Of a stretch of 44,320 nt of DNA, positions 1 through 44,320 are shown in pieces. The position numbers were made by a program, and so were the translations under genes. The number at the start of each line of letters is the position of its first letter. The stretch's first letter is position 1. The DNA is taken from sequence record MZ031013.1. One strand, 5' to 3'. Source of the stretch: Escherichia phage vB_EcoA_fTuEco01. The notes below the pieces were generated by a model. It saw only the letters and a list, made by a program, of their open reading frames with translations, made no database searches and was not told where the DNA came from.

Positions 1-110
1 TCTCGCCCTCGCCCTCGCCGGATTTCCCCCATATGGGGCCGCGCTGCGGTTGGCTTGGGAATTGGGCTAGGCTGGGCCGATTTCATCGGGTAGGCTGAGG
101 GTTGCCTTGT
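1..110. repeat. Left genome end, terminal-repeat-like region: (CGCCCT)x3 at 3..19 and perfect palindrome CCCCATATGGGG at 27..38
   Basis: Direct tandem CGCCCT x3 and the palindrome are read directly from the sequence. T7 has an analogous TTCCCCCATAGGGGG-type element in its terminal repeat. The extent of the repeat cannot be set because the right end is not in the window. Confidence 0.4.
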
Positions 111-680
111 ACTAGCTTAGTGGTACACAAGGGGAACGCCTAGGAAGCGCTGGGGCACGCCTTAGTATTGGACAAGGTGATTGCCTTAGTGCAACCGCTT
201 AGGGCTTACACAGGCCGTTTTAGGGCCATTCCTGAGCGTTTGACAGGGTGGGCGGGCGTGGGCTATCTGTTCGTTTCGCTCCACTGCGTTACGCTACACT
301 CACCGCGCTTGTGTACCTTAGGTTATTCCTTGATGGATAGCTTAGGTTAGCCTTAGTGGACTACCTTAGTTAAAGCCTTAGTGCTTAGCTTAGTATCAGC
401 TTAGTAGTGTACCTTAGTCAGACTTAGTGTCTTCTCTTAGTGATTGCACATGCAAGCATGTAAGATGCCATTAGGTCGCGGTCGGTAGACCGCTAAAGAA
501 AGAGAATAGTAATAAGATGCAGTAGGAGGAACACCAGAAACCTAGCCAACCTAGCCTATCCTAGCTCTGTATCTATTGCTTTCCTTAGTCTCACATGTTA
601 GACAACCTATGTTTATCTTAGTAGTTGTGACATGTATCACATAAATAATCTATCTTAGTGAAACTTAGTGTTGACATAGG
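110..680. repeat. Array of more than 15 short (C)CTTAGT(G) repeats at irregular spacing, analogous to the heptamer arrays flanking T7 terminal repeats
   Basis: CTTAGT recurs at about 114, 165, 186, 330-440 (about 10 copies, e.g. gccttagtggactaccttagttaaagccttagtgcttagcttagtatcagcttagtagtgtaccttagtcagacttagtgtcttctcttagtg), 586, 618, 653 and 664. The same motif reappears at the right edge of the window (44049, 44138, 44268). Confidence 0.6.
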
Positions 681-700
681 CAATCAACTGGTATACATTA
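638..700 (+). promoter_or_regulatory. Candidate host sigma70 early promoter: TTGACA (671..676), 17-nt spacer, TACATT (694..699)
   Basis: Perfect -35 hexamer with a 17-nt spacer and a 4/6 -10 hexamer, upstream of the early gene block. No transcript data. Confidence 0.4.
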
Positions 701-829
701 GCAATCACTGAGACGGACCTAGCAAGCTGTCTCAGGTTATAAGCAGGAGAATTGATGCGTAAGCCATAGCTAGTGGATGTAGTCGCATGAAGGCTTGAGT
801 AAGGGGCCGCTTAATACCTTCTTCCTCTG

Positions 830-905
830 GAGACAACGCTTATAACACTGCTCTTTAACAATCTGCTTAGTGTAACCTATGTATGCCGTGGTTAATTACT
901 TATTG
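830..905 (+). promoter_or_regulatory. Early intergenic structured element 1 with conserved core CTCTTTAACAATC (851..863); RNase III-site-like
   Basis: The core is shared with three other early intergenic elements. It also contains tgtaacctatgtatgccgtgg (873..893), which is the near-exact reverse complement of 1644..1663 in element 2. Confidence 0.35.
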
Positions 906-919
906 AATAGGAATTAACT

Positions 920-1015
920 ATGAATTATGAAGAAATGTATGAAGTCTATTTCGACTCATTAGATGAAGGAGAAGAAGCATTATCCTTCGCTGAGTTTGTG
1001 GAGGCCTTATCGTGA
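920..1015 (+). CDS. Hypothetical early protein, 31 aa, acidic
   Basis: ATG at 920; the TGA stop overlaps the GTG start of the next ORF (GTGA). Not in the ORF track because it is under 60 aa. Confidence 0.3.
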   Translation: MNYEEMYEVYFDSLDEGEEALSFAEFVEALS

Positions 1016-1239
1016 AAGTACAGGTAAGGGCTTACAACATGCCAGTTGATGAGATTCAGCACTTTCTAGATAAAGGCTATGATTTATGTAAGATGCGCAC
1101 ACCAGATAACTATGACTACTCACCTAAATATCTGCATTATATTGATCTTAAGATGGGTAAGAAGTTAGTTATTACAGGTACTGCATATAACCGCATTATC
1201 AAAGTTCTTAAAGAGGGTGCTAATCATGACATTAAATAA
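1012..1239 (+). CDS. Hypothetical early protein, 75 aa
   Basis: ORF track entry with a GTG start coupled to the upstream stop. No recognisable motif. Confidence 0.5.
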   Translation: MKVQVRAYNMPVDEIQHFLDKGYDLCKMRTPDNYDYSPKYLHYIDLKMGKKLVITGTAYNRIIKVLKEGANHDIK

Positions 1240-1405
1240 CCGTGAACTGCACGTTCTCTTCACCCTGTTATGTTACATGATTCGTAACAACGAATTACTT
1301 ACAGATGATGAGTTAGCCTTGTATCACCGCTTTCTTAACGAAGGTTGGACCGATATAGTTAATCAATACCGTAACATGATAGATGAGTTGAGGGAGGGTA
1401 AATAA
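1226..1405 (+). CDS. Hypothetical early protein, 59 aa
   Basis: ATG at 1226 preceded by an AAGAGGG RBS at 1211..1217; the track ORF starts at an upstream GTG at 1217. Confidence 0.5.
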   Translation: MTLNNRELHVLFTLLCYMIRNNELLTDDELALYHRFLNEGWTDIVNQYRNMIDELREGK

Positions 1406-1629
1406 TGTATCAACATGAGGTATTCTTTGAATCAGCTAGCGAAGCTATTCGCTTCCGTGATGATATGATGCAAGCTGGTGTAGGCGTTGATGTGTATCAC
1501 TATTTGATAGACTACGACACTGAATATCACCGAGTTACCTTAGTATCTGAGTATGACAACCAAGTCATTACTGAGTATCTAGGTAGTGAAGATTATGATT
1601 ACGATGAAGTAATCACGACAAATCTCTAA
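1405..1629 (+). CDS. Hypothetical early protein, 74 aa, acidic
   Basis: ATG overlaps the upstream stop (TAATG). Rich in Asp/Glu/Tyr. Confidence 0.5.
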   Translation: MYQHEVFFESASEAIRFRDDMMQAGVGVDVYHYLIDYDTEYHRVTLVSEYDNQVITEYLGSEDYDYDEVITTNL

Positions 1630-1637
1630 ATTAACTA

Positions 1638-1666
1638 TTGACAACCACGGCATACAAGGTTACATT
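1638..1666 (+). promoter_or_regulatory. Candidate host sigma70 promoter: TTGACA (1638..1643), 17-nt spacer, TACATT (1661..1666)
   Basis: Same -35/-10 hexamers and spacing as the candidate at 671. Confidence 0.4.
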
Positions 1667-1745
1667 AAGCATCAAGACGGCGACGTCTTTAAACATCCCG
1701 CTCTTTAACAATCGGGCTAGTGCCTTGGTAGGCTAACTACTTACT
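1640..1745 (+). promoter_or_regulatory. Early intergenic structured element 2 with core CTCTTTAACAATC (1701..1713); RNase III-site-like
   Basis: Conserved core plus flanking complementary segments, lying between two early ORFs. Confidence 0.35.
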
Positions 1746-1755
1746 AAGGTGAACT

Positions 1756-1968
1756 ATGAACTACTGCGACATCGCTCACGAATTACGCATGGAACGTGAG
1801 AAACAAGAGAAGCGGATTATCAAGAAGATGGCTGTACTGCTTGCACACTATAAGGCAGACAAACAGCCAACACATGATGAGTTCGTGGACTTCTGTAACA
1901 TGTATCTTAATGTGAGTAAGGCCACTGGTTACAGATGGCTTAAAGCACTGAATGATGGAGAATTGTAG
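1756..1968 (+). CDS. Hypothetical early protein, 70 aa, possible small DNA-binding protein
   Basis: ORF track entry; the C-terminal segment VSKATGYRWLKAL looks helix-turn-helix-like. Weak. Confidence 0.45.
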   Translation: MNYCDIAHELRMEREKQEKRIIKKMAVLLAHYKADKQPTHDEFVDFCNMYLNVSKATGYRWLKALNDGEL

Positions 1969-1971
1969 CAA

Positions 1972-2060
1972 TAAGCCAGCTTAATAGCTGGCCTATCAAG
2001 GCACTAACCTAGCCCTTTAACAATCTGGTTTGTGTCTTGATAGGCTTACTAACAGAAAGG
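1972..2060 (+). promoter_or_regulatory. Early intergenic structured element 3 with core CCCTTTAACAATC (2013..2025)
   Basis: Hairpin gccagc-ttaata-gctggc at 1975..1992; arms cctatcaaggcac (1992..2004) and gtgtcttgatagg (2032..2044) are complementary and enclose the core. Confidence 0.4.
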
Positions 2061-2069
2061 TAAATTATC

Positions 2070-2237
2070 ATGGAAACTTTAATCGTTACCACTACAATCA
2101 ACGGCGTAAGTATCAGCATAACTAAGTATTCTTCCGAAGAGTATGAAGTGAATCACGGAATAGCTGCTATGGTGTATGACAACTTGGCAGATGCCGTGGA
2201 GCATTGGATACAGTCATGTAAGGCTGCAATTAAGTAG
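2070..2237 (+). CDS. Hypothetical early protein, 55 aa
   Basis: ATG at 2070 with upstream AGAAAGG; stop TAG at 2235..2237. Under 60 aa, so not in the track. Confidence 0.4.
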   Translation: METLIVTTTINGVSISITKYSSEEYEVNHGIAAMVYDNLADAVEHWIQSCKAAIK

Positions 2238-2244
2238 GAAAGAT

Positions 2245-2360
2245 AAGGCTGGCACTAGCCAGCCTATCAAGGCACAAGCCACGCTCTTTAACAATATGGG
2301 TAGTCGCTTCTTAGTCTGGATAGGTTAAACCTAGGAGATTCTCTTGAGTCTCCTATAATG
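2245..2360 (+). promoter_or_regulatory. Early intergenic structured element 4 with core CTCTTTAACAATA (2284..2296), a further hairpin at 2334..2353 and a perfect TATAAT at 2354..2359
   Basis: Hairpin ggctgg-cact-agccagcc at 2250..2267; arms cctatcaagg and ctggatagg are near-complementary; ggagattc-tctt-gagtctcc forms a second hairpin. Confidence 0.35.
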
Positions 2361-2391
2361 TAACCTAACTAACTAAATGAGGATTAATAAC

Positions 2392-2748
2392 ATGGCTATG
2401 TCTAATAAGACTTACTCTCAGGTTTACAACACCGCTCATGCTGCATTAGTTGAACGTATCTGGGATGATGCTATTGATTGTATCGATAACGCACATGATG
2501 CAATCCATGAGGTGGCGGATAGTGCTGTACCAATCTATTATGCTGACATCTTCTCGGTGATGGCCAGTGAAGGCATCGACCACTTCTTCGAGGATTCTGG
2601 CTTAATGCCAGACACTAAGGATGTGACGGTCGTACTACAAGCCCGTATTTATGAACAACTCACCATTGATTTATGGGAACGTGTTCAAGATATGATTGAT
2701 GCGTACATCGATTCCGCTGAGGATTCAGAAGAAGAGGAGGAAGAATAA
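2392..2748 (+). CDS. ocr: Ocr-like DNA-mimic anti-restriction protein (T7 gene 0.3 homologue), 118 aa
   Basis: The translation MAMSNKTY...[15 protein letters not shown]...[13 protein letters not shown]...[15 protein letters not shown]...EDSEEEEEE matches T7 Ocr as I recall it, nearly residue for residue in the conserved blocks, including the acidic C-terminus. Start moved to the ATG at 2392 to match T7 MAMSN. Confidence 0.85.
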
Positions 2749-2750
2749 AG

Positions 2751-2867
2751 ATGGAAAGGCAATATAACTTCATCTTCTCAGACGGTGTAACCCTGAAATG
2801 TTCCTTACGATTTGCGCAGATTCGTGAGGAAGTACTAGGAACTACATACAAGCCATTTAGCTGACAC
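2751..2867 (+). CDS. Hypothetical early protein, 38 aa
   Basis: ATG at 2751 immediately after the ocr stop, with AGGAGGAAG inside the ocr 3' end acting as an RBS. Confidence 0.3.
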
Positions 2868-2875
2868 TATAAGAG
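2855..2875 (+). promoter_or_regulatory. Degenerate phage-type promoter (ATTTAGCTGACACTATAAGAG)
   Basis: Matches the SP6-type core GACACTATA with a deviant +1 region. It is the most upstream phage-promoter-like site. Confidence 0.35.
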
Positions 2876-2940
2876 AAGGCTTAACAAGGCGTTGCTACGG
2901 TAGCGCCTGATTAAACTTTCACTTACTAGGAGTTAAGATT

Positions 2941-3168
2941 ATGGATTTAGATAGCATCATTATGGCATTTGCTCTTATTGGCTTAAGCTGGTGCTCCTAT
3001 CACCTTTACCGTGAGTTCTTATTTGATAAAGCTAAACGCAAACTAAGAAAGGAAGGCGGTAATTACCTTTGTATAAGAGGTGGCTTAGTCGAATACATTG
3101 CACCTAACGGCATGGAGTGCGCCATTAACAAAGATGCATTTATAGAGACGTGGCATTACATCAAGTAG
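2941..3168 (+). CDS. Hypothetical small membrane protein, 75 aa
   Basis: N-terminal hydrophobic segment IIMAFALIGLSWCSY; GGAG RBS upstream. Confidence 0.5.
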   Translation: MDLDSIIMAFALIGLSWCSYHLYREFLFDKAKRKLRKEGGNYLCIRGGLVEYIAPNGMECAINKDAFIETWHYIK

Positions 3169-6882: not shown

Positions 6883-6898
6883 GTCTCACATGTGAGAC
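6883..6898. repeat. Conserved perfect palindrome GTCTCACATGTGAGAC, copy 1
   Basis: 16-bp perfect inverted repeat read from the sequence; it ends 2 nt before the promoter at 6901. Confidence 0.8.
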
Positions 6899-6900
6899 TT

Positions 6901-6921
6901 ATTTACCGGACACTATAGGAT
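6901..6921 (+). promoter_or_regulatory. Phage RNAP promoter (ATTTACCGGACACTATAGGAT)
   Basis: Match to the window consensus ATTTACyGGACACTATAGAAG (SP6-type). Confidence 0.75.
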
Positions 6922-6924
6922 AGC

Positions 6925-7073: not shown

Positions 7074-7089
7074 GTCTCACATGTGAGAC
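7074..7089. repeat. Conserved palindrome GTCTCACATGTGAGAC, copy 2
   Basis: Perfect 16-bp palindrome, 5 nt upstream of the promoter at 7095. Confidence 0.8.
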
Positions 7090-7094
7090 TTCGT

Positions 7095-7115
7095 ATTTAC
7101 CGGACAGTATAGATA
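7095..7115 (+). promoter_or_regulatory. Phage RNAP promoter variant (ATTTACCGGACAGTATAGATA)
   Basis: Consensus match with C to G at -7 and a deviant initiating region. Confidence 0.6.
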
Positions 7116-7142
7116 AGATTAACTCACTTTGGAGATTTAACC

Positions 7143-7274: not shown

Positions 7275-9263
7275 ATGGCTATTATTCAGAATGTACCGTG
7301 TCCTGCTTGCCAAAAGAACGGACATGATATTACTGGCAATCATTTAATGATCTTTGACGACGGGGCAGGATACTGTAACCGTGGTCACTTCCATGATAAC
7401 GGTAAACCTTATTACCACAAGCCAGGGGGTGGCATCGAGATAACCGAATTGCCTATTACTGGCAATATCAAATATACACCTTCTCAATTCAAAGAAATGG
7501 AGAAGGAAGGGAAGGTAAGCGACCCTAAGTTGCGCGCCATCGCACTTGGTGGTATGCGTATGAAAGACCGTTGGGAGGTTATGAATGAGCAAGAAAGGGC
7601 AGACCAAGAAGCAGAGTGGAAACTTGATGTTGAATGGTTCCTCACGCTTAAGCGTAAGAATCTTGTTTCCCGACACATTCGCGGCGACATTTGCGCATTG
7701 TATGATGTACGTGTCGGACACGATGAAGATGGTAGAGTCTCACGGCATTACTATCCACGCTTCGAGAAAGGTGAGCTAGTAGGCGCTAAGTGTCGCACAT
7801 TACCTAAAGACTTTAAGTTTGGTCATTTAGGTAAACTCTTTGGTATGCAAGATCTTTTCGGTATGAATACTTTGTCTCACGTGTTAGACAAGGGAAGACG
7901 AAAGGATTGCTTGCTTATTGTAGGTGGTGAACTTGATGCACTAGCAGCACAGCAAATGCTCCTTGATTCTGCCAAGGGTACTAAGTGGGAAGGCCAGCCT
8001 TACCATGTATGGTCTGTCAATAAAGGTGAGTCTTGCCTTGAAGAGATAGTACAGAACCGTGAACACATCGCCCAATTTAAGAAGATTATATGGGGTTTTG
8101 ATGGCGACGAGGTGGGGCAGAAGCAGAATCAGCAAGCGGCTCGCCTGTTTCCTGGCAAATCCTATATCCTTGAATACCCTTCTGGTTGCAAAGATGCTAA
8201 CAAGGCATTGATGGCTGGCAAGGCTAAAGAGTTTGTTGATGCTTGGTTTAATGCCAAGTCATCTGATGAAGTCTTTGGTAGCCAGATTAAATCTATCGCA
8301 TCTCAAAGGGATAAGCTCAAGGCTGCACGTCCAGAGCAAGGACTATCATGGCCTTGGCCTAAGCTGAACAAGGTAACGCTAGGTATTCGTAAGAACCAGC
8401 TTATCATTGTAGGTGCAGGTTCTGGTGTAGGTAAGACTGAGTTCCTCCGCGAAGTGGTTAAACATCTCATTGAAGAGCACGGTGAATCTGTAGGCATCAT
8501 TTCTACAGAAGACCCGATGGTCAAGGTGTCCCGTGCTTTTATCGGTAAGTGGATTGATAAGCGCATTGAGTTACCGCCAACCAATGACCCGAAAGAAGAC
8601 GGATACCGTGAGGTGTTCGACTACACCGAGGAAGAAGCTAACGCTGCCATTGATTATGTGGCTGATACAGGAAAGCTATTTGTGGCTGACCTAGAAGGCG
8701 ACTATTCTATGGAGAAGGTAGAGCAAACTTGCCTAGAGTTTGAGGCTATGGGCATTTCTAATATCATCATTGATAACTTAACGGGGATTAAATTAGATGA
8801 GCGTGCTTTTGGTGGGAAGGTTGGTGCACTTGATGAATGCGTCAAACGAATTGGTACTATCAAAGACCGACATGCGGTTACGATTTTCCTTGTCTCTCAC
8901 CTTACACGTCCTCCGGCAAACCGTACCCAACACGAAGAAGGTGGCGAAGTTATCCTTTCTGACTTCCGAGGCTCAGGCGCTATCGGATTCTGGGCATCTT
9001 ACGCCTTGGGGATTGAGCGTAATACAAGAGCTGAAACGCTTGATGAAAGGACTACCACGTACATCTCGTGTGTCAAAGACCGCGATCAAGGTATCTACAC
9101 TGGAACCAAGGTCATGCTTAAGGGTGACATTCAAACCGGACGTTTAATGGAACCACAAGCTAGAACAAGGTCATTTGATACAGGTGAAACAAGGCAGCAA
9201 GAGGTGCCTGATTTACCGGACACTATAGAAGAGACAACCTTTGACGATGAACAGGAGTTTTAA
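7275..9263 (+). CDS. DNA primase/helicase (T7 gene 4-like), 662 aa
   Basis: N-terminal zinc ribbon CPACQ...CNRGH; Walker A GAGSGVGKTEF; acidic C-terminus DDEQEF ending in Phe, as in T7 gp4 (...TDF). Confidence 0.95.
   Translation: MAIIQNVPCPACQKNGHDITGNHLMIFDDGAGYCNRGHFHDNGKPYYHKPGGGIEITELPITGNIKYTPSQFKEMEKEGKVSDPKLRAIALGGMRMKDRWEVMNEQERADQEAEWKLDVEWFLTLKRKNLVSRHIRGDICALYDVRVGHDEDGRVSRHYYPRFEKGELVGAKCRTLPKDFKFGHLGKLFGMQDLFGMNTLSHVLDKGRRKDCLLIVGGELDALAAQQMLLDSAKGTKWEGQPYHVWSVNKGESCLEEIVQNREHIAQFKKIIWGFDGDEVGQKQNQQAARLFPGKSYILEYPSGCKDANKALMAGKAKEFVDAWFNAKSSDEVFGSQIKSIASQRDKLKAARPEQGLSWPWPKLNKVTLGIRKNQLIIVGAGSGVGKTEFLREVVKHLIEEHGESVGIISTEDPMVKVSRAFIGKWIDKRIELPPTNDPKEDGYREVFDYTEEEANAAIDYVADTGKLFVADLEGDYSMEKVEQTCLEFEAMGISNIIIDNLTGIKLDERAFGGKVGALDECVKRIGTIKDRHAVTIFLVSHLTRPPANRTQHEEGGEVILSDFRGSGAIGFWASYALGIERNTRAETLDERTTTYISCVKDRDQGIYTGTKVMLKGDIQTGRLMEPQARTRSFDTGETRQQEVPDLPDTIEETTFDDEQEF
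9211..9231 (+). promoter_or_regulatory. Phage RNAP promoter embedded in the 3' end of the primase/helicase gene
   Basis: ATTTACCGGACACTATAGAAG is a perfect consensus; in frame it encodes LPDTIEE. Confidence 0.7.
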
Positions 9264-9437: not shown

Positions 9438-9461
9438 GCTTGTCTCACATGTGAGACAGGC
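9438..9461. repeat. Conserved palindrome (gcttGTCTCACATGTGAGACaggc), copy 3, extended stem followed by a T-rich run
   Basis: Core 9442..9457 is perfect; the flanks extend the stem to about 10 bp; followed by TCTTATT. Terminator-like. Confidence 0.7.
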
Positions 9462-10611: not shown

Positions 10612-10635
10612 GGTTGTCTCACACGTGAGACAGCC
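10612..10635. repeat. Conserved palindrome variant (ggttGTCTCACACGTGAGACagcc), copy 4
   Basis: Stem arms gtctca and tgagac are conserved, with a CACG centre variant. Confidence 0.65.
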
Positions 10636-13517: not shown

Positions 13518-13585
13518 GTTATACTCAAGGTCACTTACGAGTGGCCTTTATGAATAACTTATTCCTACTTATTTTGTCTAACATG

Positions 13586-13606
13586 ATTTACTGGACACTA
13601 TAGAAG
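13586..13606 (+). promoter_or_regulatory. Phage RNAP promoter (ATTTACTGGACACTATAGAAG)
   Basis: Perfect consensus. Confidence 0.8.
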
Positions 13607-13607
13607 G

Positions 13608-13672
13608 AAAGCCTAGGTAATCTAGGTTTATAAGGTAGTATAGGTAATTAAGTAAATATAGGAGATATAAAT
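13608..13672. repeat. AT-rich TAGGTWA-repeat block downstream of a promoter
   Basis: gcctaggtaatctaggtttataaggtagtataggtaattaagtaaatataggagat; similar blocks occur at 6961..7020 and 38650..38702. Confidence 0.5.
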
Positions 13673-14056: not shown

Positions 14057-14356
14057 ATGATGGAAGAAGTGATTCAAGCTAAACATGTAGGTATCATCTT
14101 TCGTGATCTAGAGCAGCGTAAAGTTGCAGGTCACACTCGTCTGGCTAAAGAAGACGATACAGCAATCACTACTGTGGAACAAGCAGATGCCTATCGTGGT
14201 CCAGAGTTTACTCAAGGTGAAACTTGTCATCAATTGAGCCTTTCGCTTTGTGACACTATGGCTAGTGTAAATGTACAAGAGGTTGAAGATGGTGAATGTG
14301 TTAGTTATGTCTACCCTCTCGATACTATTGCACGTATTAAGGTAGTTCATAAGTAA
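14057..14356 (+). CDS. Hypothetical protein, about 98-99 aa
   Basis: AAGGAG RBS; ATG at 14057 or 14060. Confidence 0.55.
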   Translation: MMEEVIQAKHVGIIFRDLEQRKVAGHTRLAKEDDTAITTVEQADAYRGPEFTQGETCHQLSLSLCDTMASVNVQEVEDGECVSYVYPLDTIARIKVVHK

Positions 14357-14375
14357 TTACTGGACACTATAGAAC
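14355..14375 (+). promoter_or_regulatory. Phage RNAP promoter (AATTACTGGACACTATAGAAC)
   Basis: Consensus match; overlaps the stop codon of the upstream ORF. Confidence 0.7.
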
Positions 14376-14433
14376 AATAGGTCGGCTTAGTTCGGCCTAT
14401 GATTGTGTAGTGTAACAATAGGAGACTAAATAA

Positions 14434-15469: not shown

Positions 15470-15485
15470 GTCTCACGTGTGAGAC
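15470..15485. repeat. Conserved palindrome variant GTCTCACGTGTGAGAC, copy 5
   Basis: Arms are conserved with a CGTG centre; 15 nt upstream of the promoter at 15501. Confidence 0.7.
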
Positions 15486-15500
15486 AAATCGGTGTCCGGT

Positions 15501-15523
15501 ATTTACTGGACACTATAGAAGAG
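15501..15523 (+). promoter_or_regulatory. Phage RNAP promoter (ATTTACTGGACACTATAGAAGAG)
   Basis: Perfect consensus. Confidence 0.8.
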
Positions 15524-15573
15524 AAGAATTTTAATCGGCGATAATGCCATAACCAACAAAAGGAGAATTTAAT

Positions 15574-31910: not shown

Positions 31911-31932
31911 CTTGTCTCACATGTGAGACAGG
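31911..31932. repeat. Conserved palindrome (cttGTCTCACATGTGAGACagg), copy 6, followed by TCTTTA
   Basis: Perfect 16-bp core at 31914..31929, lying between two internal virion protein genes. Confidence 0.7.
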
Positions 31933-36240: not shown

Positions 36241-36435
36241 ATGATTAACTCCGAACTGGTAGATAGTGGTGTGAAGCTGGCGCCACCTGCATTAGTATCA
36301 GGTGGGTACTTCCTCGGTATCAGTTGGGATAATTGGGTGTTAATAGCAACATTCATTTATACCGTGTTGCAAATTGGAGACTGGTTTTATACCAAGATTA
36401 AACTATGGAGGAGGAGCCGTGAGCGTACACAATAA
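36241..36435 (+). CDS. Holin-like small membrane protein, 64 aa
   Basis: AAGGAGGTG RBS; hydrophobic WVLIATFIYTVLQIGDWFY segment and highly basic C-terminus KIKLWRRSRERTQ; position equivalent to T7 gene 17.5. Confidence 0.5.
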   Translation: MINSELVDSGVKLAPPALVSGGYFLGISWDNWVLIATFIYTVLQIGDWFYTKIKLWRRSRERTQ

Positions 36436-36718
36436 ACATGCAGCTACGGAAGACGAGGTTGGCATTCTACATGGTGCTATTACCAAAATCTTTAATAAGA
36501 AAGCACAGGCAATACTGGACACTATAGAAGAAGACCCAGATGCAGCACTGCATTTAGTCTCTGGTAAAGACATTGGAGCTATGTGTAAGTGGGTTCTTGA
36601 TAATGGTATTACCGCTACACCCGCTGCACAGCAGGAGGAGTCCAAGCTATCTAAGCGCCTCAAGGCTATCCGAGAGGCATCAAGTGGCAAGATTATTCAA
36701 TTCACTAAGGAGGATTGA
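36419..36718 (+). CDS. Putative terminase small subunit, 99 aa
   Basis: GTG start 5 nt after GGAGGAGG; lies immediately upstream of, and is translationally coupled (TGATG) to, the large terminase gene. Confidence 0.45.
   Translation: MSVHNKHAATEDEVGILHGAITKIFNKKAQAILDTIEEDPDAALHLVSGKDIGAMCKWVLDNGITATPAAQQEESKLSKRLKAIREASSGKIIQFTKED
36510..36530 (+). promoter_or_regulatory. Phage RNAP promoter embedded in the putative small terminase gene
   Basis: CAATACTGGACACTATAGAAG; in frame it encodes ILDTIEE. Confidence 0.6.
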
Positions 36719-38616
36719 TGGCTAAGGCAAGAGAATCACAAGCGGAGGCTCTTGCCAGATGGGAGATGCTACAGGAGTTACAGCAGACCTTTCCTTACAC
36801 AGCGGAAGGTTTGCTTCTCTTTGCAGACACAGTTATTCATAACTTAATTGCAGGCAACCCTCATCTGATTCGTATGCAGGCTGATATCTTGAAGTTCCTA
36901 TTCTACGGACACAAGTATCGCCTCATCGAAGCGCCTCGTGGTATCGCTAAGACAACACTATCAGCAATCTATACAGTATTCCGTATCATTCATGAACCGC
37001 ATAAGCGTATCATGGTTGTATCCCAAAACGCCAAGCGAGCAGAGGAAATCGCAGGTTGGGTAGTTAAAATCTTCCGGGGCTTAGACTTTCTTGAGTTTAT
37101 GCTGCCGGATATCTACGCTGGGGACCGTGCATCCGTTAAGGCGTTTGAGATTCATTACACCCTACGTGGTAGTGATAAGTCTCCTTCTGTATCCTGTTAC
37201 TCAATCGAAGCAGGTATGCAGGGTGCTCGTGCTGATATTATTCTAGCGGATGACGTAGAGTCGATGCAGAATGCTCGTACGGCAGCGGGCCGTGCCTTGC
37301 TTGAGGAACTGACTAAGGAGTTTGAATCTATCAACCAGTTTGGGGACATCATTTACCTTGGTACACCTCAGAACGTAAACTCTATCTATAACAACCTACC
37401 TGCTCGTGGTTACTCTGTTCGTATCTGGACTGCGCGTTACCCTTCAGTAGAGCAAGAGCAATGTTATGGCGACTTCCTTGCACCTATGATTGTTCAAGAT
37501 ATGAAGGACAACCCAGCACTTCGCTCAGGGTACGGGTTGGATGGTAATAGTGGTGCACCTTGTGCCCCTGAAATGTATGATGATGAAGTCCTGATTGAGA
37601 AGGAAATCTCTCAGGGTGCTGCTAAGTTCCAGCTTCAGTTCATGCTTAACACTCGCATGATGGATGCTGACAGATACCCATTACGCCTGAACAATCTAAT
37701 CTTCACCTCGTTTGGTACAGAGGAAGTCCCTGTGATGCCTACGTGGAGTAATGATTCCATAAACATCATTGGTGATGCACCTAAGTATGGTAACAAGCCT
37801 ACGGATTTCATGTACAGACCTGTAGCTCGCCCATACGAATGGGGTGCTGTCTCCCGCAAGATTATGTATATTGACCCTGCGGGTGGTGGTAAGAACGGAG
37901 ATGAGACGGGTGTAGCCATCGTATTCCTGCACGGCACATTCATTTATGTGTATCAGTGCTTTGGTGTACCTGGCGGATACCGAGAGTCGTCCCTGAATCG
38001 CATTGTGCAGGCCGCAAAGCAGGCGGGTGTTAAAGAGGTATTCATTGAGAAGAACTTTGGTCATGGCGCGTTTGAGGCGGTAATTAAGCCGTACTTTGAA
38101 CGAGAGTGGCCTGTAACTCTGGAAGAGGATTACGCCACCGGACAGAAAGAGTTGCGTATCATTGAGACGCTGGAGCCGCTCATGGCAGCCCATAGGCTTA
38201 TCTTCAATGCAGAGATGGTGAAGTCAGACTTTGAGTCGGTACAGCACTATCCGCTTGAACTACGCATGTCCTACAGTCTTTTCAATCAAATGTCGAACAT
38301 AACGATTGAGAAGAACAGCCTCCGGCACGATGACCGCCTAGACGCCCTGTATGGCGCTATACGGCAATTAACTTCTCAGATAGACTATGACGAGGTTACA
38401 CGGATTAATCGCCTCAGAGCGCAGGAGATGCGCGATTACATCCATGCTATGAATACACCTCATCTACGCAGGGCAATGCTATATGGAGATTACGGTACTG
38501 AGCGAAGAGTGACCAACACTTCCGTAGCGATGCAGCAGCGAGTTTACGGGCAGAACTACCGAAATAAATCGGCAAGCAGAAATACACTTTCTGCAAGGAT
38601 TTCAAGGACTTATTAA
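36718..38616 (+). CDS. Terminase large subunit (T7 gene 19-like), 632 aa
   Basis: Walker A-like APRGIAKTT, a Walker B-like hydrophobic stretch followed by DD (ADIILADDVES), and a C-terminal nuclease region; AAGGAGG RBS. Confidence 0.9.
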   Translation: MAKARESQAEALARWEMLQELQQTFPYTAEGLLLFADTVIHNLIAGNPHLIRMQADILKFLFYGHKYRLIEAPRGIAKTTLSAIYTVFRIIHEPHKRIMVVSQNAKRAEEIAGWVVKIFRGLDFLEFMLPDIYAGDRASVKAFEIHYTLRGSDKSPSVSCYSIEAGMQGARADIILADDVESMQNARTAAGRALLEELTKEFESINQFGDIIYLGTPQNVNSIYNNLPARGYSVRIWTARYPSVEQEQCYGDFLAPMIVQDMKDNPALRSGYGLDGNSGAPCAPEMYDDEVLIEKEISQGAAKFQLQFMLNTRMMDADRYPLRLNNLIFTSFGTEEVPVMPTWSNDSINIIGDAPKYGNKPTDFMYRPVARPYEWGAVSRKIMYIDPAGGGKNGDETGVAIVFLHGTFIYVYQCFGVPGGYRESSLNRIVQAAKQAGVKEVFIEKNFGHGAFEAVIKPYFEREWPVTLEEDYATGQKELRIIETLEPLMAAHRLIFNAEMVKSDFESVQHYPLELRMSYSLFNQMSNITIEKNSLRHDDRLDALYGAIRQLTSQIDYDEVTRINRLRAQEMRDYIHAMNTPHLRRAMLYGDYGTERRVTNTSVAMQQRVYGQNYRNKSASRNTLSARISRTY

Positions 38617-41463: not shown

Positions 41464-43899
41464 ATGATTCAAAGACTAGGTTCTTCATTAGTTAAATTCA
41501 AGAGTAAAATAGCAGGTGCAATCTGGCGTAACTTGGATGACAAGCTCACCGAGGTTGTATCGCTTAAAGATTTTGGAGCCAAAGGTGATGGTAAGACAAA
41601 CGACCAAGATGCAGTAAATGCAGCGATGGCTTCAGGTAAGAGAATTGACGGTGCTGGTGCTACTTACAAAGTATCATCTTTACCTGATATGGAGCGATTC
41701 TATAACACCCGCTTCGTATGGGAACGTTTAGCAGGTCAACCTCTTTACTATGTGAGTAAAGGTTTTATCAATGGTGAACTATATAAAATCACGGATAACC
41801 CTTATTACAATGCTTGGCCTCAAGACAAAGCGTTTGTATATGAGAACGTGATATATGCACCTTACATGGGTAGTGACCGTCATGGTGTTAGTCGTCTGCA
41901 TGTATCATGGGTTAAGTCTGGTGACGATGGTCAAACATGGTCTACTCCAGAGTGGTTAACTGATCTGCATCCAGATTACCCTACAGTGAACTATCATTGT
42001 ATGAGTATGGGTGTATGTCGCAACCGTCTGTTTGCCATGATTGAAACACGTACTTTAGCCAAGAACGCACTAACCAATTGTGCATTGTGGGATCGTCCTA
42101 TGTCTCGTAGTCTGCATCTTACTGGTGGTATCACTAAGGCTGCAAATCAGCGTTATGCAACAATCCATGTACCTGATCACGGATTATTCGTGGGCGATTT
42201 TGTTAACTTCTCTAATTCTGCGGTAACAGGTGTAACTGGTGATATGAAAGTTGCAACAGTTATAGATAAGGACAACTTCACGGTTCTTACAGCCAATCAG
42301 CAGACCTCTGATTTGAACAATGCTGGAAAGAATTGGCACATGGGTACTTCCTTCCATAAGTCTCCATGGCGTAAGACAGATCTTGGCCTGATACCTCGTG
42401 TTACTGAAGTTCATAGCTTTGCTACTATTGATAACAATGGCTTTGTTATGGGTTATCACCAAGGCGACGTAGCTCCACGCGAAGTTGGTCTTTTCTACTT
42501 CCCTGATGCTTTTAACAATCCATCTAATTATGTTCGTCGTCAGATACCCTCTGAGTACGAACCGGATGCGGCAGAGCCATGCATCAAGTACTATGACGGT
42601 GTGTTATACCTTATCACTCGTGGTACTCGTGGTGACAGTCTTGGAAGCTCTTTGCATCGCAGTAGAGATATAGGTCAAACTTGGGAGTCACTAAGATTTC
42701 CACATAATGTGCATCATACTACTTTACCGTTTGCTAAGGTAGGAGATGATCTTATTATGTTTGGTTCAGAACGTGCAGAAAATGAATGGGAAGCAGGTGC
42801 ACCTGATGATCGTTACAAGGCATCTTACCCCCGCACCTTCTATGCACGATTGAATGTAAACAAGTGGAGTGCAGATGACATTGAATGGGTTAACATCACA
42901 GACCAAATCTATCAGGGTGACATTGTTAACTCCAGTGTAGGTGTAGGTTCGGTGGTAGTTAAAGACAGTTACATTTACTATATCTTTGGTGGTGAAAACC
43001 ATTTCAACCCAATGACTTATGGTGACAACAAAGATAAAGACCCATTTATTGGACATGGACACCCTACTGATATATACTGCTATAAGATGCAGATTGCAAA
43101 TGACAGTCGTGTATCTCGTAAGTTTACATATGGTGCAACTCCAGGTCAGGCTATACCTACCTTCATGGGTACTGATGGTATTCGTACTATCCCTGCTCCA
43201 CTTCACTTATCAGGAGAGGTAGTTGCCGCAGATATGACTGTCGAACATCTTACCCTGAAGGCAAGTACAAGTGCTAATATTCGCTCAGAGATGCTGATGG
43301 AAGGTGAATATGGGTTCATTGGTAAGACTATACCAACGGATAACCCAACCGCACAACGTGTTATCATCTCGGGTGGAGAAGGTACAGCAGCAGATAAAGG
43401 TGCTCAGATTACCCTACATGGAGCAGGTTCTAGTACTTCTAGACGCGCAGTGTATAATGCCAATGAGCACTTGTTCCAAAGTGGGGCTATCATGCCATAC
43501 AACGATAACCTGTACCCTGCTGGCGGTCCTCATAATAGATTCACCACTATCCATCTTACAAGTGACCCTATTATTACATCGGATGCCACTCATAAGTATG
43601 GCTCACAAGGTATTGATGAGAGTGTACTAAAGGCATGGGGTAAGGTTGCCTTCAAGCAGTACAAGTTGATTGGCGAGATGTCTCGTGGTGTGCATCACAC
43701 TCACTTTGGTGTATTGGCACAAGACATTGTAGCTGCTTTTGCATCCGAAGGGTTAGATGCAATCGACTTCGGCATTGTCTCCTTCGAAGAAGGTCAGTTT
43801 GGTGTTAGATATAGTGAAATCTTAATCTTGGAGGCTGCTTATACTCGCTATCGTTTAGACAAGTTAGAGGAGATGTATGCCACTAATAAAAGCAGTTAA
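41464..43899 (+). CDS. Tailspike endo-N-acetylneuraminidase (endosialidase) with C-terminal intramolecular chaperone domain, 811 aa
   Basis: Two sialidase Asp-box motifs (SGDDGQTW and SRDIGQTW), a C-terminal region typical of self-cleaving tailspike chaperone domains, AAAGGAGG RBS, and a length of 811 aa that matches K1E/K1-5 endosialidases as I recall them. Confidence 0.8.
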   Translation: MIQRLGSSLVKFKSKIAGAIWRNLDDKLTEVVSLKDFGAKGDGKTNDQDAVNAAMASGKRIDGAGATYKVSSLPDMERFYNTRFVWERLAGQPLYYVSKGFINGELYKITDNPYYNAWPQDKAFVYENVIYAPYMGSDRHGVSRLHVSWVKSGDDGQTWSTPEWLTDLHPDYPTVNYHCMSMGVCRNRLFAMIETRTLAKNALTNCALWDRPMSRSLHLTGGITKAANQRYATIHVPDHGLFVGDFVNFSNSAVTGVTGDMKVATVIDKDNFTVLTANQQTSDLNNAGKNWHMGTSFHKSPWRKTDLGLIPRVTEVHSFATIDNNGFVMGYHQGDVAPREVGLFYFPDAFNNPSNYVRRQIPSEYEPDAAEPCIKYYDGVLYLITRGTRGDSLGSSLHRSRDIGQTWESLRFPHNVHHTTLPFAKVGDDLIMFGSERAENEWEAGAPDDRYKASYPRTFYARLNVNKWSADDIEWVNITDQIYQGDIVNSSVGVGSVVVKDSYIYYIFGGENHFNPMTYGDNKDKDPFIGHGHPTDIYCYKMQIANDSRVSRKFTYGATPGQAIPTFMGTDGIRTIPAPLHLSGEVVAADMTVEHLTLKASTSANIRSEMLMEGEYGFIGKTIPTDNPTAQRVIISGGEGTAADKGAQITLHGAGSSTSRRAVYNANEHLFQSGAIMPYNDNLYPAGGPHNRFTTIHLTSDPIITSDATHKYGSQGIDESVLKAWGKVAFKQYKLIGEMSRGVHHTHFGVLAQDIVAAFASEGLDAIDFGIVSFEEGQFGVRYSEILILEAAYTRYRLDKLEEMYATNKSS

Positions 43900-44026: not shown

Positions 44027-44164
44027 GCAGGTTAATATCTTAGTGTACACAAGGGCAGACCTATGATAGCTCACAGCACACCTATGAGTGCCGCTCTGGA
44101 GTCTATGACTTGTCCCCTGACTATCTAGGTTTGCTCTTAGTGTGTGTTTCAAAAGGAGGTATGT

Positions 44165-44254
44165 ATGCTGTATATAATGGCTGGTAGCTTATGGGTAATC
44201 ATGGCTTTCTTCTTTATAGCATGGTTATTAGGTTGGAGGCCAAGATGTTCATAG
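44165..44254 (+). CDS. Hypothetical hydrophobic peptide, 29 aa
   Basis: AAAAGGAGGT RBS 5 nt upstream; a single hydrophobic segment. Confidence 0.25.
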   Translation: MLYIMAGSLWVIMAFFFIAWLLGWRPRCS

Positions 44255-44320
44255 GGCGCACCTTAGTGTTGTACAAGGATTAACCAAAGTCAAAATTTTG
44301 ATATAGGCGTGTGTGAGGTG

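Follow-up and report, generated by a model that had tools for sequence, protein, structure and literature searches.

A unit-length genome of a K1-specific, SP6-like phage with one copy of its predicted terminal repeat, conserved end boxes and a phased CTTAGT array that may serve the processing of concatemer junctions

The stretch of DNA analysed here (44,320 nt, hereafter the window) encodes both subunits of a T7-type terminase, contains about twelve SP6-type phage promoters (ATTTACTGGACACTATAGAAG) and carries an 811-aa ORF (41464-43899) that aligns with regions annotated as endosialidase tailspike in relatives. Genes and phage promoters lie as follows:

36374..36718, + strand: small terminase subunit (Pfam PF11123 DNA_Packaging_2, E = 5e-16)
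36715..38616, + strand: large terminase subunit of the T7 gp19 type (Pfam Terminase-T7_RNaseH-like, E = 1.6e-35)
6898-6923, 7092-7117, 9208-9246, 13583-13621, 14352-14390, 15498-15536: SP6-type phage promoters
18668-18696, 23745-23783, 36507-36545, 38612-38650, 40956-40994: further SP6-type phage promoters

The genes syntenic with the small terminase in K1E and mutPK1A2 carry the annotation small terminase, and the large subunit shares 35% identity with T7 gp19 over 563 aa (E = 3e-99). In the outermost 2.8 kb on each side of the window we saw no SP6-type promoter. A 16-bp palindrome, GTCTCACATGTGAGAC, is present in eight copies with 0-2 mismatches; three of these stand 0-15 nt upstream of SP6-type phage promoters, and the copy at 588-603 (GTCTCACATGTTAGAC) lies among outlying copies of the short motif described below. 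K1E, KAW1A4500, mutPK1A2 and K1-5 have syntenic copies; neither SP6 nor T7 has any. The element may serve a dimeric regulator as its operator or form a terminator-like hairpin.

588-603, 6883-6898, 7074-7089, 7874-7889, 9442-9457, 10616-10631, 15470-15485, 31914-31929: copies of the palindrome GTCTCACATGTGAGAC

The left 900 nt are 88-97% identical to those of Vectrevirus phages (the K1E/K1-5 group of the Autographiviridae, Molineuxvirinae), and the best matches of the right 24 kb are KAW1A4500 (95.6%, over 99% of the 24 kb) and K1E (94.4%). Vectrevirus isolates are 95-97% identical to the window at the nucleotide level, and the window shares with the type members, besides this identity, their synteny, the SP6-type promoters and an endosialidase tailspike ORF at the right end. 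A phage record more than 97% identical, including the window's own record or a contig with both repeats, was sought and not found, nor was an identical copy of its endosialidase in the records searched; contigs encoding identical small proteins proved to be relatives, at 96-99% identity to the window. Since no identical record was retrieved, the window is, as judged by sequence comparison, an additional isolate within a known group, the K1-capsule-specific vectreviruses (SP6-like Autographiviridae).

Both ends of the window are occupied by short conserved boxes and by repeated copies of the motif CTTAGT:

1..21, + strand: left terminus box, TCT + (CTCGCC)x3 + GG; 17/21 columns invariant from SP6 to the window
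26..38: C-run + ATA(T)G box; CCCCATA invariant in the SP6 group; contains the palindrome CCCCATATGGGG
1..265, + strand: predicted left copy of the direct terminal repeat (DTR); both boundary boxes present, right copy outside the window
116, 161, 185, 198 (116..202), + strand: CTTAG copies inside the repeat; 3-4 at matching positions in Vectrevirus relatives
240..276, + strand: inner boundary box, TTGACAGGGTG...GTGGGCTA/TCTGTTCGTTT, the slash marking the boundary; 30/37 columns invariant
317, 341, 352, 365, 377, 384, 389, 400, 413, 423, 436, + strand: phased array of 11 CTTAG(T/G/C)
584, 617, 654, 664 (584..699), + strand: further CTTAGT copies, interleaved with sigma-70-like early promoters
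627-656 and 671-699, + strand: sigma-70-like early promoters
44039-44045, 44136-44142, 44262-44268, + strand: CTTAGTG copies, 282, 185 and 59 nt before the end of the window
44282..44320, + strand: junction box AACCAAAGTCAAAATTTTGATATAGGCGTGTGTGAGGTG; nearly invariant from SP6 to the window, the sequence upstream of it not

An alignment of seven left ends, ranging from SP6 to the window, was scored for invariant columns. Both the terminus (1-21) and the inner boundary (240-276) are 81% invariant, against 0% in the first part of the repeat interior (39-127) and 34% in the second (128-239), which is the pattern of site-specific rather than headful cutting. The region around the C-run (22-38) reaches 59%, with CCCCATA fully invariant. 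Within the terminus box, Tandem Repeats Finder (TRF) detects a 6-nt period repeated three times at 2-19. The repeat as a whole has a G+C content of 60%, versus 45% for the genome.

The preliminary description of this DNA had drawn attention to a dense CTTAGT array at the left end, and the counts bear it out. CTTAGT occurs 53 times on the two strands of the window, compared with 28 ± 5 in shuffled sequences, and the excess is located entirely at the ends. Positions 1-680 hold 15 copies on the + strand and none on the - strand; the 43-kb interior holds 11 on the + strand, giving a Poisson expectation of 0.17 per 680 nt, and three more fall within the last 282 nt. Among all 6-mers, counted without bias in the left 750 nt, CTTAGT ranks first. 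When the variants CTTAGG and CTTAGC are included, 1-680 contains 19 copies of CTTAG, with a strand bias of 19:0. The cores of the dense array span 317-441 (317..447 with the closing GATTGCA), beginning 52 nt past the repeat; the CTTAGT copies inside it are spaced by 10-13 nt (mean about 12), and TRF reports a degenerate tandem repeat of period 24 at 314-394.

That CTTAGTG recurs at the right end had also been proposed; the recurrence stands, although the interval given for it, 44049..44275, is about 10 nt off, the copies starting at 44039, 44136 and 44262. Three copies in the last 282 nt compare with four in the whole interior (P ~3e-6). Most or all SP6-group relatives keep the first two, and a subset keeps the third. 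The motif is thus distributed unevenly around the repeat, with 11 copies in 131 nt on the left and three dispersed over 282 nt on the right, all of them on the + strand. Some CTTAGTG copies (103-132, 44039-44055, 44262-44279) are accompanied by a second shared word, giving CTTAGTG(G)TACACAAGG and CTTAGTGTTGTACAAGG. Around 103-132 these words form an imperfect inverted repeat, CCTTGTAC...GTACACAAGG, whose fold is weakly better than that of shuffled sequences (z = -1.27). A coding origin of the repeats was considered and rejected, there being no credible ORF before 920. An Rfam search of 1-3000 at permissive thresholds gave chance-level matches only, and a search of full-text literature for the CTTAGT motif or for the cis requirements of T7/T3 packaging, whose scope did not extend to the SP6 genome and T7 packaging papers, returned nothing specific.

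The main rival to a packaging role is one in early transcription, in which the CTTAGT copies would be operators or upstream elements of the host-RNA-polymerase promoters that drive genome entry and the early genes. The copies at 584, 617, 654 and 664 do interleave with the sigma-70-like sites at 627-656 and 671-699, that at 664 abuts a TTGACA -35 hexamer, and in all relatives a ribosome-binding site follows closely on the CTTAGTG at 44136. The nearest promoter-like site, however, is 180-300 nt downstream of the dense array (317-447), and the repeat itself and the far right end hold further copies, such that the motif surrounds the concatemer junction; the T7 array has the same placement next to its repeat. 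We therefore regard a transcriptional role as rather unlikely.

Two other elements of the early region deserve mention. Three tandem copies of AACCTAGCC (539-565; TRF score 40) separate the CTTAGT array from the early promoters. A box, GCTCTTTAACAATCTG, is repeated between the small early genes, at 843-873, 1693-1723, 2005-2035 and 2276-2306; SP6 has it at 659, 929 and 1539 and T7 at 816, in the interval from promoter A3 to gene 0.3 where the RNase III site R0.3 of T7 lies. RNase III probably processes the early mRNA at these boxes.

The palindrome noted earlier near the left terminus, CCCCATATGGGG, is a perfect 12-bp palindrome that occurs once in the window, at 27-38. Palindromes of this size, whose arms of only 6 nt escaped the inverted-repeat scan, were located by script; the window has 13 perfect ones, compared with 11.6 ± 3.7 in shuffled sequences, which is chance level. 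The left-end cut lies between two of the 13 (27-38 and 44290-44301), both of them conserved in the SP6 group; this placement is unlikely to have arisen by chance. The second, TCAAAATTTTGA, is AT-rich and perfect, lies 19 nt before the left-end cut inside the box at 44282-44320, and is conserved from SP6 to the window.

One could envisage that CCCCATATGGGG works as a hairpin or cruciform in end processing, for example in a hairpin-primed duplication of the repeat: it is perfectly palindromic and 26 nt from the end, T7 has C5-ATA-G5 in the same place, and the other palindrome is found 19 nt away on the opposite side of the left-end cut. Against this, the predicted DNA hairpin at 27-38 (-4.5 kcal/mol) is no better than those of shuffled sequences, z being 0.13 for this palindrome and -0.26 for the other, so that neither has extra stability, and 12-bp palindromes are at chance level genome-wide. 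Moreover, a box consisting of a C-run and ATAG lies equally far from the end in T7 (26-38), SP6, Era103, K1F, T3 and gh-1, but its right arm lacks complementarity in T3 (CCCCATAGCCCC, also written CCCCCCCCATAGCCCC) and K1F (CCCCATAGGCCC), where the left half is kept, and SP6 and K1-5 have the version CCCCATAGGGTG. A hairpin function consequently seems improbable. Since the symmetry is not conserved and the hairpin is not stable, the box is better read as a recognition sequence, and what is conserved appears to be the sequence C4-8ATAG about 26 nt from the left end, not its two-fold symmetry.

Conservation of a different kind marks the array. Its copies stand +52, +76, +87, +100, +112, +124, +135, +148, +158 and +171 from the end of the repeat, and among seven SP6-group genomes these offsets are kept in all Vectrevirus members examined and nearly kept in SP6; the outlying copies at about +320, +353 and +390 are likewise kept in relatives. 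Within 341-447, the CTTAG cores are 84% invariant, compared with 46% for the spacers (Fisher p = 4.6e-5). Cores that stay invariant while spacers drift, at positions that are kept, indicate selection on the CTTAGT words and their positions and not on the whole stretch. This contrast suggests recognition by a sequence-specific protein. A neutral remnant left in a non-coding leader by tandem duplication or slipped replication would account for the degenerate period-24 repeat that TRF sees in this non-coding region, but it predicts equal substitution in cores and spacers, contrary to what SP6, K1-5 and K1E display, and it sits poorly with copy positions conserved across genera relative to the repeat end and with the 19:0 strand bias; such an origin is very improbable.

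It had been observed that the window ends without a copy of its left-end sequence and that the right terminal repeat is missing, from which it was concluded that the length of the repeat could not be set. The observation is correct. We detected no direct repeat between the two ends, exact prefix/suffix matches included, and no copy of the left-end sequence at the right end, so that only one copy is present. The length, in contrast, can be set by homology because both boundaries of the repeat are conserved boxes. Short exact DTRs of SP6, K1-5, K1E and their relatives are already known from database records and the literature, and in six relatives deposited with both ends they measure 174-288 bp (mutPK1A2, 286; K1E, 288; KAW1A4500, 267; Mt1B1_P10, 267; K1-5, 234; SP6, 174), the T7 repeat being 160 bp. 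All six begin with (TC)TCGCCCTCGCC, in SP6 in the form TCTCTCGGCCTCGG, and in all six, each with both copies, the repeat ends with GTGGGCTA and is followed by TCTGTTCGTTT (the boundary is also written GTGGGCTA/TCTGTTCG). The window opens with TCTCGCCCTCGCCCTCGCCGG, and GTGGGCTA/TCTGTTCGTTT occurs in it once, at 258-265/266. By homology with relatives, rather than from its own ends, the DTR of the window is placed at 1-265 (±2), and the right-end cut is predicted between 265 and 266. Deposited left ends differ by 1-2 nt (TCGCC in K1-5, CTCGCC in mutPK1A2, TCTCGCC in K1E) although the junction sequences are the same, hence the uncertainty of about 2 nt in the length (263-265).

At the other end, the final 39 nt, AACCAAAGTCAAAATTTTGATATAGGCGTGTGTGAGGTG, are identical, down to the final base, to the box that adjoins the right repeat of KAW1A4500. 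The same box is directly followed by TCTCGCCCTCGCC in twelve permuted assemblies of relatives (PhiNW-E1, one IMG/VR contig and ten Logan/ENA contigs), which contain a single repeat copy at ...GTGTGAGGTG/TCTCGCCCTCGCC (also written ...GTGTGAGGTG/TCTCGCCC...), a single-copy junction being the outcome of either a collapsed DTR or concatemer reads, which cannot be told apart there. When the end of the window is joined to its start, the join is collinear with one of these assemblies (contig L016/L021) over 3 kb at 97.9%. As unique sequence ends with the junction box and the missing right repeat would come next, the left-end cut site is expected after base 44320. With termini that match those of relatives and the junction assemblies, the window would start at the physical left end and stop one base before the right repeat. 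A motif common to both cut sites was sought by local alignment of their contexts and rejected, the alignment being not significant in the window (p ~0.5) and marginal elsewhere (SP6, 0.036; T7, 0.012); for want of a significant common motif we make no claim of a single recognition sequence.

That the window is instead complete as it stands, with an arbitrary start and either no terminal repeat or permuted headful ends, is hardly tenable even though no repeat is visible in it and many relatives in databases were deposited permuted: its two ends agree, base for base, with the recorded termini of K1E, KAW1A4500 and SP6, the repeat boundary boxes are conserved, the terminase is of the T7 type, a 179-bp DTR has been demonstrated by Bal31 digestion and run-off sequencing in an SP6-like phage (PMC4837284), and permuted records reflect the behaviour of short-read assemblers, which often drop one DTR copy, the records then being re-oriented to a curated start (PMC10438801).

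The missing copy is a matter of assembly or deposition and not of biology; the record of ACG-C91 has the same one-copy layout. Taking all evidence together, we estimate at roughly 0.85 the probability that the window is a complete unit-length genome with one copy of the DTR and conserved end elements; the end architecture is supported by the data, and the role of the array is what we infer. The virion DNA is predicted to be about 44,585 bp long (44,320 + 265), and the genome may be annotated as such, with a 265-bp DTR at 1-265 and again after 44320; the record is to be handled as complete and not as truncated. Correct ends are useful for genome rebooting and synthesis, for phagemids carrying packaging signals and for comparative work.

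How the ends might be processed can be outlined from what is known of T7 and T3. The concatemers of these phages have one repeat per junction, and the repeat is duplicated during processing. Their terminase generates left ends by cutting at the boundary between right unique sequence and repeat, and right ends by cutting at the boundary between repeat and left unique sequence. Packaging of the T7 type runs from right to left, such that the left end is packaged last and ejected first. By family resemblance, replication of the present phage would yield head-to-tail concatemers that share one repeat per junction; its T7-type terminase would cut at two fixed sites, 44320/1 for left ends and 265/266 for right ends, and the repeat would be duplicated during this processing. 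The boxes at 1-21, 26-38, 240-276 and 44282-44320 are the putative recognition elements of the cut sites, and the small terminase is a candidate for the trans-acting partner of these cis elements.

The CTTAGT array (317-447; outlying copies extend around the repeat from -282 to +669), in one orientation and with a phase of about 12 nt, could act as a multi-site protein platform, and the junction-processing protein that binds it would most likely be the small terminase subunit. Lying on the non-packaged side of the right-end cut, the array would not be a simple initiation site like lambda cosB; a signal that precedes the terminal left-end cut would be a better fit, since a translocating terminase would encounter the array shortly before reaching the repeat and that cut. 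That the small terminase or a different junction protein uses the array as a multi-site platform, which prepares or positions end cutting, is a tentative proposal to which we give somewhat less than even odds. Marginally more tentative is the wider idea that its motif turns over between lineages of the Autographiviridae, its position by the repeat being kept, and that the platform signals the terminase to stop and to make the left-end cut. If true, this would provide a function for the short-repeat arrays noted beside the T7 terminal repeat since 1983. The invariant cores set among drifting spacers offer a clean target for footprinting and scrambling, in a phage group that is used in therapy of K1 E. 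coli.

The closest comparison is with the SP6 group itself. The end boxes and array offsets of the vectreviruses K1E, K1-5, mutPK1A2, KAW1A4500 and Mt1B1_P10 and of SP6 (Zindervirus) are orthologous to those of the window, as are gene order and terminase; the interior of the repeat, on the other hand, varies by indels, with DTRs of 174-288 bp as against the 265 bp predicted for the window. In more distant systems, lambda cosB and cosQ and SPP1 pacL and pacR are arrays of short boxes situated by a fixed terminase cut and are thought to organise an oligomeric small terminase. They bear no sequence relation to the putative CTTAGT platform, and cosB differs from it further in that the CTTAGT array is on the non-packaged side of the nearest cut.

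Within the Autographiviridae, T3, K1F, K11, gh-1 and Era103 follow the same end plan, each with its own commonest short word; the top motifs of Era103, gh-1 and K11 differ from both the CCTAAAG of T7 and the CTTAGT of the SP6 group. Some terminal sequences are nonetheless shared, namely the TCTC start in the window, T7, T3, K1F and K11, and CTATCTGT at the inner boundary of the repeat in the window, T7, T3, K11 and gh-1. The layout of the T7 ends has been known since its genome paper, and Dunn and Studier reportedly named the arrays that flank the terminal repetition SRL and SRR in 1983. The T7 record displays a TCTC terminus, CCCCCATAGGGGG at 26-38 and ...GTGTCCCT/ATCTGTT at the inner boundary, and after the repeat it has CCTAAAG at +16, +29, +54, +67, +80, +134, +147 and +173, all on the same strand and frequently spaced by 13 nt. 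A looser CCTAAAG set precedes the right repeat of T7, where the window has a sparser set of CTTAGTG. T7 (Studiervirinae) and the window (Molineuxvirinae) differ in the motif itself and have no alignable nucleotide similarity outside the short boxes; T7 moreover has phiOL and phiOR near its two ends, whereas SP6-type promoters were not seen near those of the window. The resemblance to T7 that had been suggested for the left end is nevertheless well founded, as it extends to TCTC, the C-run and ATAG box, CTATCTGT, an array in one orientation with 12-13 nt spacing shortly after the repeat, and a homologous, T7-type terminase, and the array is in both phages followed by host promoters and then by the GCTCTTTAACAATCTG box before the first gene. 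Involvement of such arrays in concatemer processing, as ascribed to T7, may apply to the window by analogy, and the CTTAGT array would then be the functional counterpart of the CCTAAAG arrays of T7.
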